A stretch of 64,000 nucleotides of DNA, from the IMG/VR virus record IMGVR_UViG_3300028393_001967; one strand, 5' to 3'. This stretch comes from a virus. The notes under the pieces are model-generated. The model saw only the letters and a program-made list of their open reading frames with translations, searched no databases and was not told the origin of the DNA. Below, piece by piece: positions 51,093-64,000 of this stretch. Position 1 is the first letter of the stretch. Each line of letters opens with the position of its first letter. The translations under genes were made by a program, and so were the position numbers.

Positions 51093-51167
51093 CTGGCCGT
51101 AGCACAATGGATAGTGCAGTAGCCTTCTAAGCTATTGATCCAGGTTCAATTCCTGGCGGCCGGACCA
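51093..51167 (+). tRNA. tRNA-Arg(TCT)
   Basis: Cloverleaf, loop CTTCTAA, CCA end; sigma70 promoter TTGACA-17-TATACT upstream. Confidence 0.9.
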
Positions 51168-58217: not shown

Positions 58218-59051
58218 ATGATTAGTGTTCATTTAGGCGGAAGGATTGGAAATCATTTATGGATGTATGCTGTTGCTAGAACAGTAGCAGAGCATTGTGG
58301 TTTTGATTATCACATTCCTAGAGATTTTTTAGGTAAAGATATTTTTAATGCAGATCTTGGTGTAGAACATTGCCAAGTAGATCGAGTATATACTGAGCGC
58401 AATGGATGGGAGCAGTTTTACGAACCACAAATTTGGAACATTGAAGATAATACAAAACTTCACGGTTGGTGGCAAACTGAAAAATATATTATCAATAACA
58501 AACGCAACATTCAGCAATGGTTTACTCAGAAAGACCCTAACGTAGGGTTATTAGATCAACTTCAAATAGATGACGATACTTGTGTTATTAACTTCCGTGG
58601 AGAAGATTATAAAGGTGTTCATTTCTTATATTTGCCAGAACAGTATTATAGAGATTCAATTAATGAAATGCGTAAGATAAACCCCAATATGAAATTTGTG
58701 GTTATTACCAATGATGTTGCTGAAGCTAATAGACTATTCCCCGAATTCCCTGCATATCATTTTGGTCAAAAGGATGACTTTTATATTGTTAGTCAAGCCA
58801 AATATCTAATTATTGTAAACTCTACATTCAGCTGGTGGGCAGCTTGGCTCAATGATCGCAGTAAATTTACCATTGCTCCCAAATATTGGTTTAGATATAA
58901 TATTGATAACGGCTGGTGGTGCGGTAACGACATAATTACACACGGTTGGCATTATATGCAAAAGAGCGGCAAGTTGCAGTCGTCAAATGAATGTTTGCGT
59001 GAACAGTCCTTGCAGGATCTTAAAGACTTCCCGCACAATCGTGATTACTAA
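58218..59051 (+). CDS. GT11 alpha-1,2-fucosyltransferase-like protein
   Basis: GRIGN..+.YA, G.WQ.EKY, R..DY, NSTFSWWAAWL, P..WF. Confidence 0.85.
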   Translation: MISVHLGGRIGNHLWMYAVARTVAEHCGFDYHIPRDFLGKDIFNADLGVEHCQVDRVYTERNGWEQFYEPQIWNIEDNTKLHGWWQTEKYIINNKRNIQQWFTQKDPNVGLLDQLQIDDDTCVINFRGEDYKGVHFLYLPEQYYRDSINEMRKINPNMKFVVITNDVAEANRLFPEFPAYHFGQKDDFYIVSQAKYLIIVNSTFSWWAAWLNDRSKFTIAPKYWFRYNIDNGWWCGNDIITHGWHYMQKSGKLQSSNECLREQSLQDLKDFPHNRDY

Positions 59052-59191
59052 ATTGTTGTATTTTTACAACAAAAAGTGTTGACAACTGTACAGCACTCAT
59101 ATACAATAGAGACTTGTTAGTTAGAAAACACCAGTTTTTAACCAGTGTTTAGAAAAAAGACTAAATAAATTGTCAAAAACATAAAAAGTGC

Positions 59192-59220
59192 TTGACAACA
59201 GGCATAAATAAATGTACAAT
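59192..59220 (+). promoter_or_regulatory. Sigma70 promoter of the tRNA operon, with a TAAATA late motif in its spacer; a second TTGACA-17-TACAAT lies at ~59079
   Basis: TTGACA-17-TACAAT. Confidence 0.8.
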
Positions 59221-59274
59221 TAACACATACACTAGAAACAGTGTATAATTTTTAAAGAGAAAACGGAAACTAAA

Positions 59275-59418
59275 ATGCAATCGCAACAAAGACATTTACA
59301 ACTAGGGACAGCAAAACAGCTGGGCAATTGCCCCGCCGTATTGTGGTCTGCGTTTAATATGTCAAGTTATGATCGCACACCAGAGATTACGATCGGGGTC
59401 CGGGAGGACTTAATGTAA
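59275..59418 (+). CDS. Putative attenuator leader peptide, 47 aa, containing all 20 amino acids
   Basis: MQSQQRHLQLGTAKQLGNCPAVLWSAFNMSSYDRTPEITIGVREDLM; its 3' end is the 5' arm of the antiterminator. Confidence 0.65.
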   Translation: MQSQQRHLQLGTAKQLGNCPAVLWSAFNMSSYDRTPEITIGVREDLM

Positions 59419-59479
59419 ATGTAAGTTTACACTAACTCCACAGGACCCCAGGATTAAGAACCCTGGGGTTTTTTGTTTT
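59395..59479 (+). terminator. Attenuator: antiterminator (59395-59449) overlapping an intrinsic terminator (59445-59479)
   Basis: GGGGTCC/GGACCCC competes with ACCCCAGG/CCTGGGGT followed by TTTTTGTTTT. Confidence 0.75.
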
Positions 59480-59729
59480 AGCGTTGGTATAGTGTGAAGA
59501 ACAGGTAACGAGGACCTGGCCCCGCACTTAAAACATGGGGCAAACGGGCGGTGGCGAGGATGGCTTATCTTCTTGTAGATAAAAAAATTCGTCATATTAA
59601 AGCAAATTGTTGCACGGGCATCCCTTTGACGGGTGTTGTCGAAGCATAGCTAAACAGTTTGTTTTAATATACACATTGAGCTGACAGGGGCTGTGATGCC
59701 GCAGACAGTGTGTTTAATTAAATAAGTGT

Positions 59730-59945
59730 ATGTCTAATAAACAAAAAGAATATGCTGGTAGGCTATTAAAAATAGCATCCCAGCAGGCACATCACAAACT
59801 ACCCAATGGTTCAAAAGAAGAACTATTGATTTATCAACTGGGTTTTGTTGTTGGAATTTTGTCTAGATATGCACCCAATGATATTACCATTCATCAAGAC
59901 ATTAAAATTCTTGAAGAATATTTAGGTATCAATATTAAAGAATAA
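59730..59945 (+). CDS. Hypothetical protein
   Basis: TAAATA 5 nt upstream. Confidence 0.55.
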   Translation: MSNKQKEYAGRLLKIASQQAHHKLPNGSKEELLIYQLGFVVGILSRYAPNDITIHQDIKILEEYLGINIKE

Positions 59946-59947
59946 TT

Positions 59948-60036
59948 GGAGTGTGTTCCCTGTTGCCGGCTGTAACCCGGTAGCCTTTATTAAGCAGGGT
60001 GGCTGGCAAGTGGTTCGATTCCATCACGCTTCACCA
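59948..60036 (+). tRNA. Atypical tRNA-Tyr(GTA)-like gene lacking a normal D-arm
   Basis: Acceptor stem, anticodon loop CTGTAAC, long V-arm, TTCGA loop, CCA. Confidence 0.55.
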
Positions 60037-60042
60037 ATTTAC

Positions 60043-60118
60043 ATCGCGGTGGACTTCTGGGTTAGGTCACTAGGCTTTCATCCTAGCTAGGCGGGTTCGA
60101 TTCCCGTCCGCGATACCA
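60043..60118 (+). tRNA. tRNA-Glu(TTC)
   Basis: Cloverleaf, loop CTTTCAT, CCA. Confidence 0.85.
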
Positions 60119-60126
60119 AAGATAAT

Positions 60127-60212
60127 GGATGTGTAGGAAAACTGGTAACCCCAGAAGACTGTAAATCTTCCGCCTTACGGCACTGTTGGTTCGACTCCAA
60201 CCGCATCCACCA
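60127..60212 (+). tRNA. tRNA-Tyr(GTA)
   Basis: Loop CTGTAAA, V-arm, CCA. Confidence 0.9.
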
Positions 60213-60220
60213 AAAGTAAT

Positions 60221-60295
60221 GGGCTGATAGTGATAATGGGAGCACAGGGGCTTTGCAAGCCTTTAGTCGGGGTTCGATCCCCCGTCGGTCCACCA
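60221..60295 (+). tRNA. tRNA-Ala(TGC)
   Basis: Loop TTTGCAA, G3-U70, CCA. Confidence 0.9.
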
Positions 60296-60302
60296 AGTTT
60301 AT

Positions 60303-60387
60303 GGATAGTAGTGTCGCTGGGCGCGAGCTGGTTTGCTAAACCGGTCTACTGGAAACGGTAACAGTTCGATTCTGTTGCTATCCACCA
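60303..60387 (+). tRNA. tRNA-Ser(GCT)
   Basis: Loop TTGCTAA, V-arm, CCA. Confidence 0.8.
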
Positions 60388-60394
60388 AGTTAAT

Positions 60395-60469
60395 GGTCTC
60401 GTCATATAGTGGTTATTATACCGGCCTGTCTAGTCGGATATCGGGGTTCGATTCCCCGCGGGATCGCCA
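60395..60469 (+). tRNA. tRNA-Asp(GTC)
   Basis: Loop CTGTCTA, GCCA end. Confidence 0.9.
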
Positions 60470-60478
60470 AGTTTTTAT

Positions 60479-60553
60479 TGCCGCGTAACTCAGAGGCAGA
60501 GTAATCGCTTGATAAGCGATAAGTCGACATTTCGAAATTGTCCGTGGCAACCA
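60479..60553 (+). tRNA. tRNA-Ile(GAT)
   Basis: Loop TTGATAA, CCA. Confidence 0.85.
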
Positions 60554-60558
60554 ATTAT

Positions 60559-60634
60559 GCTCAGTTCGTCTATCGGTTTAGGACGCTGCCCTTTCAAGGC
60601 GGAAAGACGGGTTCGATTCCCGTACTGAGCACCA
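60559..60634 (+). tRNA. tRNA-Glu(TTC), second copy
   Basis: Loop CTTTCAA, CCA. Confidence 0.9.
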
Positions 60635-60644
60635 TGTTTTTTGT

Positions 60645-60718
60645 TGGCGCATTGTGTAATGGTAGCACAACAGACTTTGACTCTGTTAGTCTAGGTTCGA
60701 TCCCTAGTGCGCCTGCCA
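60645..60718 (+). tRNA. tRNA-Gln(TTG)
   Basis: Loop CTTTGAC, GCCA. Confidence 0.9.
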
Positions 60719-60725
60719 AGTTTAT

Positions 60726-60800
60726 ATCGCGTTCGTATAGTGGAAAATACACGATCCTACGAAGTTCGGAACGGTGGTTCGATTCCATCACGCGATACCA
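60726..60800 (+). tRNA. tRNA-Arg(ACG)
   Basis: Loop CTACGAA, CCA. Confidence 0.85.
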
Positions 60801-60809
60801 AAAATTTAT

Positions 60810-60885
60810 TCCATCTTAGTATTCTCGGTGAGTACCCCCGGCTGTTAACCGGAAGAGGTTGGTTCGAATCCAACAGATGGAGCCA
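60810..60885 (+). tRNA. tRNA-Asn(GTT)
   Basis: Loop CTGTTAA, GCCA. Confidence 0.9.
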
Positions 60886-60988
60886 ATATCGAAATACACT
60901 GATTGTTTAGGAGTGGGGGATACGAACCACGTTAAACAAATAAGTCTACAAAAGCCTAAGCAATAGCGCAACAGTATATTTCAATATT

Positions 60989-61063
60989 GGGGGCAGCAGT
61001 GGGCTGCGGCGTTCCCTTGCAAGGATCGTGACTAGAAGGATTCGATTTCCTCGGCCTCCACCA
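60989..61063 (+). tRNA. Divergent tRNA-Ala(TGC)-like gene
   Basis: G3-U70, loop CTTGCAA, irregular arms, CCA. Confidence 0.55.
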
Positions 61064-61072
61064 AAGATAAAT

Positions 61073-61149
61073 GCACTGGTACCAGAGAGGCCTAATGGCA
61101 TGGATTGCAAATCCGTTGTTCGGGGGTTCGAATCCCTCCCAGTGCTCCA
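61073..61149 (+). tRNA. tRNA-Cys(GCA)
   Basis: Loop TTGCAAA, U73, CCA. Confidence 0.9.
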
Positions 61150-61156
61150 AGTTTAT

Positions 61157-61230
61157 GCGGGTATGATGTAATGGTAACCTGAAACCTTGCCAAGGTTTAT
61201 TCGCGAGTTCGATTCTCGCTATCCGCTCCA
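61157..61230 (+). tRNA. tRNA-Gly(GCC)
   Basis: Loop TTGCCAA, TCCA. Confidence 0.9.
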
Positions 61231-61391
61231 ATTTTTGAGATAGACGATGGGATTGAGTCCCTTGTATTCTAGCGCATTGTGCTGATGCGTGACACACCAG
61301 TAGAACTGTACAAGGTCAATATAAACTCTCCCATTCGAGACAAGCCAATGAGTCCTTCAGAAAGATAGTTGGTCTCTCAAAAACCTATAAT

Positions 61392-61467
61392 GCAACCTTA
61401 GCAAATGTGGTCATTGCGGTCGCCTGAAGAGCGATGGAAGCAGGTTCGATCCCTGCAGGTTGCACCA
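61392..61467 (+). tRNA. tRNA-Phe(GAA)
   Basis: Loop CTGAAGA, CCA. Confidence 0.85.
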
Positions 61468-61472
61468 ATTAT

Positions 61473-61547
61473 GTATCCCTAGTGTTAACGGCAGCACGAC
61501 AGTCTCCAAAACTGCTAGTCAAGGTTCGAATCCTTGGGGGTATGCCA
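61473..61547 (+). tRNA. tRNA-Trp(CCA)
   Basis: Loop CTCCAAA, GCCA. Confidence 0.9.
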
Positions 61548-61554
61548 ATTTTAT

Positions 61555-61633
61555 CTGTGTGTAATGTCAGCCAGGTCAGACGGCTCGCCTTGGAAGTGAG
61601 AGGTCGCAGGTTCGAATCCTGCCACACAGACCA
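61555..61633 (+). tRNA. tRNA-Pro(TGG)
   Basis: Loop CTTGGAA, CCA. Confidence 0.9.
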
Positions 61634-61637
61634 ATTC

Positions 61638-61712
61638 GCCCTTTTATCCTTAATGGTAGAGGTCCTGTTTTGTAAGCAGGGTGTGTGGGTTCGATTCCTG
61701 CAAGGGGCACCA
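61638..61712 (+). tRNA. tRNA-Thr(TGT)
   Basis: Loop TTTGTAA, CCA. Confidence 0.9.
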
Positions 61713-61719
61713 AACAAAT

Positions 61720-61806
61720 GGAAGATAGGGACGCTGGGCGTCAACCGGTTTCGAAGTCCGGCCCACTCTGCAAAGGGTGACTGTTCGATTCAGTTATCTT
61801 CCTCCA
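61720..61806 (+). tRNA. tRNA-Ser(CGA)
   Basis: Loop TTCGAAG, V-arm, CCA. Confidence 0.75.
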
Positions 61807-61815
61807 ACAGTTTAT

Positions 61816-61905
61816 GGAAGCGTGGCAGAGCCCGGTTTATTGTACCTGACTTGAAATCAGACGTGTCGTAAGGCACCGTGAGTTCGAATCTCACCGCTTC
61901 CGCCA
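61816..61905 (+). tRNA. tRNA-Ser(TGA)
   Basis: Loop CTTGAAA, V-arm, GCCA. Confidence 0.9.
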
Positions 61906-61910
61906 TATAT

Positions 61911-62000
61911 GGAAAATAGAAGTGCTGGGCACTAAGCAACTTGGAAAGTTGTTCCACTTGTGATGAGCAGGTGACAGTTCGATTCTGTTATTTTCCTCCA
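61911..62000 (+). tRNA. tRNA-Ser(GGA)
   Basis: Loop TTGGAAA, V-arm, CCA. Confidence 0.8.
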
Positions 62001-62012
62001 CTAAATAAGTGT

Positions 62013-62756
62013 ATGAGAATACAGGAACTATTGGTTGAAACTGCCGAAGATGATCGAGCTATCTTGAGTCTTGCAGACGCCATTTACAATTATCTTCAGT
62101 CCTACGCTGATACAGAGTTGGACTATGATGAAACTGGCGTGATACACATAGGACGTATAGGTGATCTTTTTGATACTCCTATTGAGATACTGAATAGTGT
62201 GAGACTGGAAATAACACCAGATGAAGCTATAGTGGATTTGGCACGTAGACTATACGGTCGTGCTACTCCAGCAGATAGTCATTTTGGACAATGGGACCCT
62301 ATGAACAAGGCCATAAGCCTAAATGCTGATTATTTGAGTTCTAAACGTATGCGTAATGTTATTGCACACGAACTAAGACACGCTATGGATGATGCTAAAA
62401 GTCTAAATAGGGCTAATCAAAGTACACGTTATCGTACAGCAAGAAGTGTTCAGCATCAAGCAGATCAAGATGGCGCTTATCAAGCACAGCCTGCGGAGAT
62501 CAACGCTAGATTCGTTGAAGCATTAAATTTACTAGTGCCCGTGATTGCCAAACTGAGCACATTGGATTCTACTAGTTTTAGAACTAAGATGACTGCATAT
62601 CTAAACCGTGCATTTGAACTTAAAGACATTGCAGATTATTATCCAGAAAAAACAGCAAATGCTCACTATAGAAGACTGCTTCAAAGAGCTTGGGACTTTA
62701 TCAACAAAGAACTGGCTCACGTGAAATCCCAGTCCTCTGATACTGCTGACACATAA
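62013..62756 (+). CDS. HEXXH metallopeptidase-like late protein with capsid-targeting-like N-terminus
   Basis: MRIQELLVE after TAAATA; IAHELRHAMD; Y...P.EINAR. Confidence 0.7.
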   Translation: MRIQELLVETAEDDRAILSLADAIYNYLQSYADTELDYDETGVIHIGRIGDLFDTPIEILNSVRLEITPDEAIVDLARRLYGRATPADSHFGQWDPMNKAISLNADYLSSKRMRNVIAHELRHAMDDAKSLNRANQSTRYRTARSVQHQADQDGAYQAQPAEINARFVEALNLLVPVIAKLSTLDSTSFRTKMTAYLNRAFELKDIADYYPEKTANAHYRRLLQRAWDFINKELAHVKSQSSDTADT

Positions 62757-62761
62757 TTTTT

Positions 62762-62835
62762 AGGTCCTTAGTTTAATGGCAGAACACTGCTTTGACTTGG
62801 CGAAGATGAAAGTTCGATTCTTTCAGGACCTACCA
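62762..62835 (+). tRNA. tRNA-Val(GAC) with weak anticodon stem
   Basis: Acceptor AGGTCCT/AGGACCT, loop TTGACTT, CCA. Confidence 0.65.
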
Positions 62836-62891
62836 AACTCTCCCTTACATACGGAGTACAATAGGACAAGTAGTATGTAAACTAATACAGG

Positions 62892-62920
62892 TTGACAACT
62901 GACCATGATAGTTGTATAAT
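62892..62920 (+). promoter_or_regulatory. Consensus sigma70 promoter of the tRNA-Lys unit
   Basis: TTGACA-17-TATAAT. Confidence 0.85.
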
Positions 62921-62951
62921 AGATACTTAAACAAACAAAAGAGGTAACACA

Positions 62952-62981
62952 ATGAAACGTACTAAAGGTGCTAAAATGTAG
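62952..62981 (+). CDS. Lys-rich leader peptide MKRTKGAKM
   Basis: RBS GAGGT 6 nt upstream; three AAA codons; directly precedes two tRNA-Lys genes. Confidence 0.65.
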   Translation: MKRTKGAKM

Positions 62982-63046
62982 TGTCAACCGTTGACCCCGT
63001 ATATGGTCTAAGGTTGGCACTTTAAAGACAATTTAATATGCACAAC

Positions 63047-63121
63047 CCACTCTAAACTTTGAAGGTGAAGTCCTGCCTCTTAAGCAGAGAGAACTGAGTT
63101 CGAGTCTCAGAGAGTGGACCA
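63047..63121 (+). tRNA. tRNA-Lys(CTT)
   Basis: Acceptor CCACTCT/AGAGTGG, loop CTCTTAA, CCA. Confidence 0.85.
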
Positions 63122-63125
63122 TATA

Positions 63126-63200
63126 CGGGGTATAATTCAATGGCTAGAATAACCGGCTTTTACCCGGTCTATCAGGGTTCGAGTCCCTGTGCCCCGACCA
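63126..63200 (+). tRNA. tRNA-Lys(TTT)
   Basis: Acceptor CGGGGTA/TGCCCCG, loop CTTTTAC, CCA. Confidence 0.85.
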
Positions 63201-63326
63201 TATAAAAACACATTATACCAACTGACAATACCGTAACTGGGAAACTAAGGTTGTGTTTTAGTGTGTTTCTATATGGTCTTAACAGGAGTAATTACCCTGA
63301 TCCATAATCGGGAGTCATGACCCGAT

Positions 63327-63429
63327 GAACTCGTAGTGATGGAATGGTCAAACATAGGCCTCTTATAGGGCCGGTGGAGTTAAATGCCCACTTGCAGGTT
63401 TCGAAATCCTGCCTACAATGAGTTCGCCA
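63327..63429 (+). tRNA. Aberrant long-V-arm tRNA-like element (identity unclear)
   Basis: GAACTCG/TGAGTTC acceptor plus extra helix, TTCGAA T-loop, irregular anticodon loop, GCCA. Confidence 0.4.
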
Positions 63430-63520
63430 TATATAAACATACTAAAAATACCGTTATATCACAGTTGGTGCGTAGTGCCAACCAAGCGGACAGTTGAGTG
63501 ATAGTAGTATGTTTATATAT

Positions 63521-63596
63521 GGTGATGTAGCATAGCGGCCAATGCAGCTCCTTCATACGGAAAAGATCGTGAGTTCGAGTCTCACCATCACCACCA
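63521..63596 (+). tRNA. tRNA with CAT anticodon (Met or Ile2)
   Basis: Loop TTCATAC, CCA. Confidence 0.8.
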
Positions 63597-63654
63597 AGTT
63601 TCATAATGGTTTGAACTCTAAATAGATAAGTACAGTTATAACTCCAAGGCTAAT

Positions 63655-64000
63655 ATGCTGCACCTAATTACTTCTGACACAGATAATTTTTTCAACTTCT
63701 TAAATGAAGATCCTGTTCGACCTTCTATTCCTACAATGAGTAGAATTGGTGCTAATCGAGATATCTTTGTATATCGTGACGAAGAAGGTAGTGTTAAGGC
63801 AATCACTTGTGTAAGTTATCAAGACTTTGTTCCAACAACGGAACAAGAATTGTTTACAGTAAATACTGAACCCAGTGTTGCAGTGTTTTACACCATTTGG
63901 AGTTATGCTCCTGGTGCTGGCCGTTCGTTGATTTTTAAAGCAGTTGAACACATTAAGGAAAACAAGCCATCAATAAAAAGGTTTGTTACATTGAGTCCAC
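63655..64000 (+). CDS. GNAT/malonyl-CoA-decarboxylase-like protein (3' truncated)
   Basis: MLHLITS...AVFYTIWS..GAGR.LI...FVTLSP, open to the window end. Confidence 0.6.
   Translation, partial: MLHLITSDTDNFFNFLNEDPVRPSIPTMSRIGANRDIFVYRDEEGSVKAITCVSYQDFVPTTEQELFTVNTEPSVAVFYTIWSYAPGAGRSLIFKAVEHIKENKPSIKRFVTLSP

Follow-up and report, generated by a model that had tools for sequence, protein, structure and literature searches.

A candidate leader-peptide attenuator containing all 20 amino acids ahead of a phage tRNA array

To our knowledge, the regulation of phage tRNA genes is largely unknown, and we know of no leader-peptide attenuation in cellular tRNA operons. A 64,000-nt record from an uncultured large phage (IMG/VR virus record IMGVR_UViG_3300028393_001967; the whole stretch is referred to as the window), which encodes a ribonucleotide reductase among other large-phage genes, raises the question of what a 47-codon reading frame with its own promoter, and with two competing RNA folds at and just beyond its 3′ end, is doing ahead of an array of tRNA genes. 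Here we propose that it is likely to be a ribosome-mediated transcription attenuator that heads the phage tRNA operon and senses the decoding of every amino acid. The anatomy of the element, its conservation and covariation, the selected completeness of its amino-acid set and its linkage to tRNA arrays are matters of observation, and we describe each below before turning to how the element may work and to what else it could be.

Anatomy and codon content of the leader

On the + strand of the window, a promoter scan finds the leader promoter (TTGACA-17-TACAAT) at 59192..59220, where a first-pass annotation of this DNA had placed it, and an additional sigma70-like promoter, also TTGACA-17-TACAAT, upstream at 59079..59107. 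Folding predicts a stem-loop at the predicted transcript start (59227..59246); across alignments of relatives its stem sequence varies and the stem itself is kept. The leader ORF (59275..59418) begins with ATG, ends with TAA at 59416-59418 and has a 47-aa product, MQSQQRHLQLGTAKQLGNCPAVLWSAFNMSSYDRTPEITIGVREDLM; its Shine–Dalgarno signal, as read from the sequence, is weak, consisting of GAG/GGA within an A-rich leader. Inside the ORF lies a small conserved hairpin (GGGCAATTGCCC, 59322..59333, +), which corresponds to an RNAalifold helix at the matching alignment columns in relatives, with some two-sided changes. This hairpin does not compete with the antiterminator described below and, by inference, could possibly be an RNA polymerase pause hairpin.

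The leader had been said to contain all 20 amino acids in 37 different codons, and a recount gave the same figures. Compared with 2404 random 47-codon windows taken from the long ORFs of the window, as the annotation had proposed, its codon diversity is far higher (37 versus 27.8 ± 2.8 distinct codons; +3.3 SD): none of the 2404 reaches 37, their mean content is 16.4 amino acids and 1.7% of them hold all 20. A diversity no higher than that of non-coding frames had been named as an outcome that would refute the proposal; it did not arise, as no open off-frame stretch of the window reaches 37 distinct codons. When codons are grouped into purine-ending and pyrimidine-ending classes, 29 of 31 are represented in the leader, against a background of 22.0 ± 2.0. 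The further claim that the leader favours codons otherwise avoided by this genome also held: its GC3 is 0.49 compared with 0.30 in the genome, and its mean RSCU of 1.08 (versus 1.31 ± 0.09, P = 0.01) makes it richer in codons that are rare in this genome.

Layout of the tRNA array

The presumed regulated genes are 23 tRNA genes called by ARAGORN on the + strand at 60043..63596; the annotation was right that an array follows the leader and wrong in counting about 21 genes. Between terminator and array, the read-through transcript would contain a structured RNA of unknown family (59495..59700, +; ~200 nt, directly after the terminator), in which 9 of 25 predicted pairs show compensatory changes among 10 loci and for which there was no Rfam match, followed by a 71-aa ORF found by ORF scan (59730..59945, +) that belongs to no PHROG or Pfam family. 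A GGGCGG motif at ~59545 invited a T-box-like reading, which was discarded since the bases around it are not conserved. A scan of the + strand from 59250 to 60713, which would miss phage-specific promoters, found no sigma70-like promoter with 9 or more of 12 positions matching. Promoters within the array at 62892 and 63279 mean that the later tRNAs are not controlled solely from the leader.

Several further elements were seen in and around the array. ARAGORN did not call a tRNA-like gene at 59947-60033, in which a 7-bp acceptor stem, a T-arm and a CCA end are recognisable, the anticodon loop reads CUGUAAC (GUA, Tyr), the variable arm is long and the D-arm poor; its score against Rfam tRNA-Sec is only 23.9 bits. 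Another uncalled tRNA-like element (60989-61063) ends in CCACCA and weakly matches the Rfam tmRNA model (12 bits). Inside the array, a 271-aa ORF (61941-62756) has a weak match to IrrE/M78 peptidases. A lone tRNA-Arg(UCU) (51093-51167) lies 9 kb upstream of the array, beyond the reach of the attenuator.

A second candidate leader occurs within the array, at 62892-63047. A perfect sigma70 promoter (62892-62920) and a Shine–Dalgarno sequence precede a mini-ORF of 9 codons, MKRTKGAKM* (62952-62981), which includes three AAA Lys codons and lies 95 nt upstream of tRNA-Lys(CUU)/Lys(UUU). In 35 of 42 distinct loci an MKRxxK[RL] mini-ORF is conserved 81-115 nt upstream of Lys tRNAs, at a distance of 81-95 nt in all but one. 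The mini-ORF stop adjoins a conserved hairpin, the 3′ arm of which shows complementarity to the 5′ acceptor strand of tRNA-Lys as well, and the 62892-63047 region has no visible U-tract terminator. This second, Lys-matched candidate hints that the leader principle is used repeatedly.

A leader family linked to tRNA arrays

An exact search with the terminator sequence recovered five IMG/VR contigs with the same layout, whose peptides were used to build a profile; this profile matches 170 small unnamed metagenome proteins and 85 viral loci. The family set analysed here comprises 63 distinct IMG/VR loci with DNA and 133 distinct peptides of 42-53 aa; contigs with related sequences are as long as 375 kb. 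Neither megablast of the region nor tblastn of a consensus-like peptide gave a match in the GenBank phage collection, and no cultured relative or host is known.

The annotation had predicted that relatives would carry a conserved short ORF and alternative pairing ahead of tRNA arrays, and this arrangement recurs in the 63 distinct loci. The ATG start is invariant (63/63), and every locus (63/63), the window included, has a near-consensus promoter, matching at least 10 of 12 positions, no more than 160 nt upstream of it. A co-directional tRNA array begins 260-1040 nt 3′ of the leader ORF in all 61 loci with enough flanking sequence, and a tRNA is found within 3 kb upstream in only 3 of 63. The spacer from terminator to array differs between loci: some have a small ORF with a good Shine–Dalgarno sequence, others, like the window, a GC-rich structured RNA, and others again a third type of sequence, so that the position of the structured RNA is taken by the small ORF in other loci. 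Because the contents of the spacer vary, the conserved partner of the leader is the tRNA array. Only 13 of 61 loci, the window not among them, carry an additional strong promoter in the spacer ahead of the first tRNA, which is below the expectation from background density.

Selection for a complete amino-acid set

All 20 amino acids are present in 115 of the 133 peptides (86.5%); 16 have 19 and two have 18, the residue missing being usually Cys. Independent draws from the family composition would be complete in 2.7% of cases, and 47-codon CDS windows are complete in 2.6%. Shuffling residues within alignment columns leaves 39 ± 3% of peptides complete, and none of 2000 shuffles reaches 86.5%. 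The result does not fade as close relatives are removed: among representatives below 80%, 70% and 60% identity, 85%, 94% and 90% are complete (9 of 10 in the last set), compared with ~30% when these thinned sets are shuffled (P < 1/3000 each).

Rare residues occur about once each, and a run of regulatory codons for any one amino acid is absent. Cys averages 0.99 copies, spread over 19 positional configurations; Tyr, which no peptide lacks, averages 1.13 copies in 14 configurations and, where it has been lost from S-Y-DRT, reappears elsewhere in the peptide. On the evidence of these alignments, the set of 20 is kept by residues changing position, and its completeness is selected. The 34-43 codons upstream of the antiterminator arm, the zone in which a stall would allow the antiterminator to form, contain the full set of 20 in 54 of 63 loci; only 0.9% of 40-codon CDS windows are as complete. 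Sampling extends to codons: ACG, CCC, GCC, GCG/TCG and GAG are rare in the genes of these phages yet stand at fixed columns, and the NNA, NNG and NNY members of four- and six-fold codon families are each represented.

Two mutually exclusive folds at the 3′ end of the leader

The end of the leader ORF takes part in a three-helix antiterminator (59395..59449, +) supported by the minimum-energy fold and by covariation. Both helices that the annotation had drawn, the outer pairing of GGGGTCC (59395-59401) with GGACCCC (59443-59449) and the middle pairing of GGAG (59403-59406) with CTCC (59436-59439), are present in the minimum-energy fold, together with an inner helix (59414-59420/59425-59431) that contains the stop codon. 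The intrinsic terminator (59443..59475, +) was likewise found where expected, with a core of ACCCCAGG (59445-59452) and CCTGGGGT (59462-59469) followed by T6, and its 5′ arm overlaps the 3′ arm of the antiterminator. Fold z-scores are −3.0 (59340-59480) and −4.95 (whole predicted transcript).

This overlap is a family property. The shared strand GGACCC[CT], at once the antiterminator 3′ arm and the terminator 5′ arm, is present in every locus (55 distinct sequences), with predicted energies of −19 to −30 kcal/mol for the antiterminator and −14 to −16 kcal/mol for the terminator. Over the 55 distinct sequences the terminator is 100% paired and retains its T-tract. The antiterminator is paired in 96.7% of cells, and the covariation of its arms that had been predicted was found, with 9 of 19 pairs showing compensatory changes (79 cells); none of 500 shuffles scored as high on any measure, and slid controls were 28-62% paired. 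These figures come from a covariance-model alignment, which was chosen because MAFFT misplaced the two arm types by one column and from which seven spurious reverse-strand matches were left out; being fitted to the structure, it makes the counts lean towards the antiterminator. RNAalifold on an alignment of the whole region returned the terminator only and no antiterminator. At the outermost antiterminator pair, 40 loci have A-U, 20 have G-C and 3 have G-U, with no mismatch in 63.

The end of the reading frame is aligned with this structure. In all loci the stop codon starts 21-28 nt past the 5′ arm, within the inner helix. Relatives differ in the frame used for the final 7-10 leader codons, three frames being represented (tails GSQETKV, RVRRTVV/RVREDVV and RVREGWDG), and the nucleotides GGGTCC..GGAG and the position of the stop remain fixed despite the frame changes (59383-59418 in the window). 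Since the tail frame varies and the stop site does not, what is selected there is the RNA and the point at which translation ends, and not the tail residues.

The annotation had suggested folding the region with and without a ribosome constraint. With a 27-nt stretch held unpaired as a stand-in for the ribosome, and by equilibrium folding only, the antiterminator is the fold of the free RNA, a ribosome with the stop codon in its A site shifts it to the terminator, and one stalled at codon 20 restores the antiterminator, matching the behaviour foreseen for both the stop position and an upstream stall. The switch is predicted in about 50 of the 63 loci, the window among them; in 6 of 63 the terminator is favoured at equilibrium whatever the ribosome state. 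The antiterminator is thus the default fold of untranslated RNA. The reverse logic, in which a ribosome at the stop would block the terminator, was rejected because its footprint, extending ~15 nt past the stop, ends near 59431 and so falls short of the terminator arm at 59443.

Constraint on the leader peptide

One expectation failed. The annotation had predicted poor amino-acid conservation, and the peptide is moderately conserved, with invariant residues (M1, G17, W24 and D-R-T-x-E-I) and some codons fixed at the nucleotide level. The stretch GATCG[CT]ACACCAGAGATT (DRTPEI, 59371-59388) shows almost no synonymous change in 63 loci, third positions included; the cause may be a pause signal, a motif in the nascent chain or an RNA contact. 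Across the N-terminal part, the first, second and third codon positions show 0.22, 0.20 and 0.28 differences per site, and the synonymous share of single-base codon differences is 0.43, which indicates, as far as comparison of sequences can, a mild constraint on the leader at the protein level together with one at the nucleotide level. By the same comparison, mere sampling of codons would not require this much conservation of the peptide, and a further role, whether of the nascent chain, of a polymerase pause signal or of the released RNA, remains possible and is not excluded. The leader peptide has no PHROG or Pfam family and no confident AlphaFold fold (pLDDT 57, pTM 0.19).

Proposed mechanism

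We propose that transcription would begin at the 59192-59220 promoter and that the 47-codon leader would be translated as RNA polymerase advances. A ribosome arriving at the stop codon, which lies within the antiterminator, would keep the 5′ half of that hairpin open; GGACCCC would then pair downstream, the terminator would form and transcription would end at ~59475. Were the ribosome delayed anywhere in approximately the first 36-40 codons, or were initiation not to occur, the three-helix antiterminator would form first, the terminator would be excluded and the polymerase would continue into the tRNA genes. With all amino acids present in the leader, mostly as single copies, and nearly all codon classes sampled, slow decoding of any of them would raise the output of phage tRNA; more tRNA is probably made whenever any codon is decoded slowly, a statement for which there are no transcript or ribosome data.

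On the most parsimonious reading, the net effect would be a feedback between decoding capacity and tRNA supply, for which the candidate triggers include depletion, decay or cleavage of host tRNAs, a mismatch of codon usage with the host, and starvation. For about 10 of the 47 codons of the window leader (Leu, His, GGG, GTA and CGG) the window encodes no cognate phage tRNA, and a stall at these codons could not be relieved by read-through. That the leader is translated, how ribosome and polymerase are timed, in which direction the switch works, how read-through responds and what triggers it are all inferences.

Alternative explanations

An ordinary small gene could present a similar outline. 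With its own promoter and terminator it would encode a 47-aa product acting in trans, for example in tRNA metabolism or host defence, and the hairpin before the terminator would merely stabilise the 3′ end of the mRNA. A conserved peptide family with invariant G17, W24 and DRT-EI, third codon positions somewhat more variable than first and second ones, and 170 database proteins matching the family profile are what such a gene would predict. It is harder to reconcile with a tail that is read in three frames while its nucleotides and stop position are fixed, or with a peptide lacking both a confident fold and a Pfam or PHROG family, and it leaves unexplained how all 20 amino acids are retained as Cys and Tyr relocate, why hairpin and terminator overlap and covary, and why the leader always stands ahead of tRNA arrays; we regard it as quite unlikely. 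Constraint on the 3′ part of the leader, where nucleotides are conserved and GATCG[CT]ACACCAGAGATT is almost without synonymous change, could be taken instead to mean that what matters as a product is the ~250-nt terminated transcript, an RNA that acts in trans or has a dual function like rnTrpL, with control of the tRNAs being secondary. The stabilising 5′ stem-loop and strong terminator would suit such an RNA, and attenuator-derived sRNAs are on record (PMC6614838). No target is known, however, and neither the completeness of the amino-acid set nor the indels that preserve the reading frame in the first 38 codons would be accounted for; we consider an sRNA very unlikely as the main explanation, and it could in any case coexist with attenuation.

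A different possibility accepts the attenuator and disputes what it reports. The element might register overall translation or its coupling to transcription, through ribosome availability, initiation or host shut-off, rather than the decoding of single codons, in which case the complete amino-acid set would not be the quantity sensed. Since the antiterminator is the default without a ribosome, a global loss of translation would indeed lead to read-through, and leaders that respond to general translation stress exist, as in whiB7 (PMC10274678). Yet the completeness and codon-class coverage of the leader lie far above chance, and completeness has been held across divergence by compensatory relocation, which a purely global sensor would not need. 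We think this reading unlikely, and prefer an attenuator that senses the decoding of individual codons.

Relation to known systems

The leaders trpL, hisL, pheL, thrL and ilvL combine a promoter, a short ORF and mutually exclusive antiterminator and terminator folds, and in them the terminating ribosome prevents the antiterminator from forming. The phage element has the same geometry, down to the placement of the stop codon. It differs in its target, which is tRNA genes, and in its codons: the amino-acid-operon leaders repeat one regulatory codon, or a few, in runs, and the biosynthesis they control is that of the corresponding amino acid. Untranslated trp RNA forms the 1:2 hairpin and terminates, whereas the phage RNA defaults to the read-through fold. 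Attenuators of amino-acid operons have been reviewed (PMC1183508).

The closest functional precedent that we verified, by analogy, is the uORF attenuator of whiB7 (wblC) in mycobacteria and other Actinobacteria, in which stalling favours an antiterminator over an intrinsic terminator; read-through is induced by depletion of most amino acids, tRNAs or synthetases, and removal of Trp or His codons from the uORF abolishes the response to the matching starvation, the range of signals being set by what the uORF contains (PMC10274678). The two systems share an architecture, with a promoter-proximal ORF ahead of competing antiterminator and terminator folds, and a broad amino-acid content; that stalling in the phage leader likewise leads to read-through is inferred. 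The Mycobacterium smegmatis whiB7 uORF contains 19 of 20 amino acids, but whiB7 uORFs are highly variable in sequence and enriched in Ala, and many lack several amino acids (PMC10274678), so completeness is not conserved among them; in the phage leaders it is, with most rare residues occurring once and with Ala at 5% of residues and not enriched. The whiB7 uORF precedes a WhiB-family transcription factor and the phage leader precedes tRNA genes, and there is no sequence relationship between them. T-box elements likewise sense tRNA status through a choice between terminator and antiterminator; a T-box, however, binds one uncharged tRNA directly without translation, whereas the phage element needs its ORF. 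No T-box or other Rfam cis-regulator matched at E ≤ 1 in 58500-64000, the Rfam matches there being of tRNA type only.

We read the element as attenuation of the trp/whiB7 type in a variant form. A full-text search of the literature found no leader-peptide control of phage tRNA genes, and likewise no leader-peptide attenuation of cellular tRNA operons.

Significance

With every amino acid retained by selection, this leader would be the first natural sensor to cover all of them, and would tie phage tRNA supply directly to decoding performance. It would also be relevant to the conflict in which host defences cleave tRNAs and phages encode their own. Because the element is compact (~280 nt) and uses sigma70-type signals, it should suit reporter systems directly, and it may be useful as a reporter of translation stress.

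We give roughly even chances to the strongest form of the proposal, in which the phage monitors the whole tRNA pool and a delay at any codon causes its own tRNA set to be transcribed. If that is true, these phages would possess an autonomous homeostasis of decoding capacity and an automatic response to host anticodon nucleases or to host tRNA decay.
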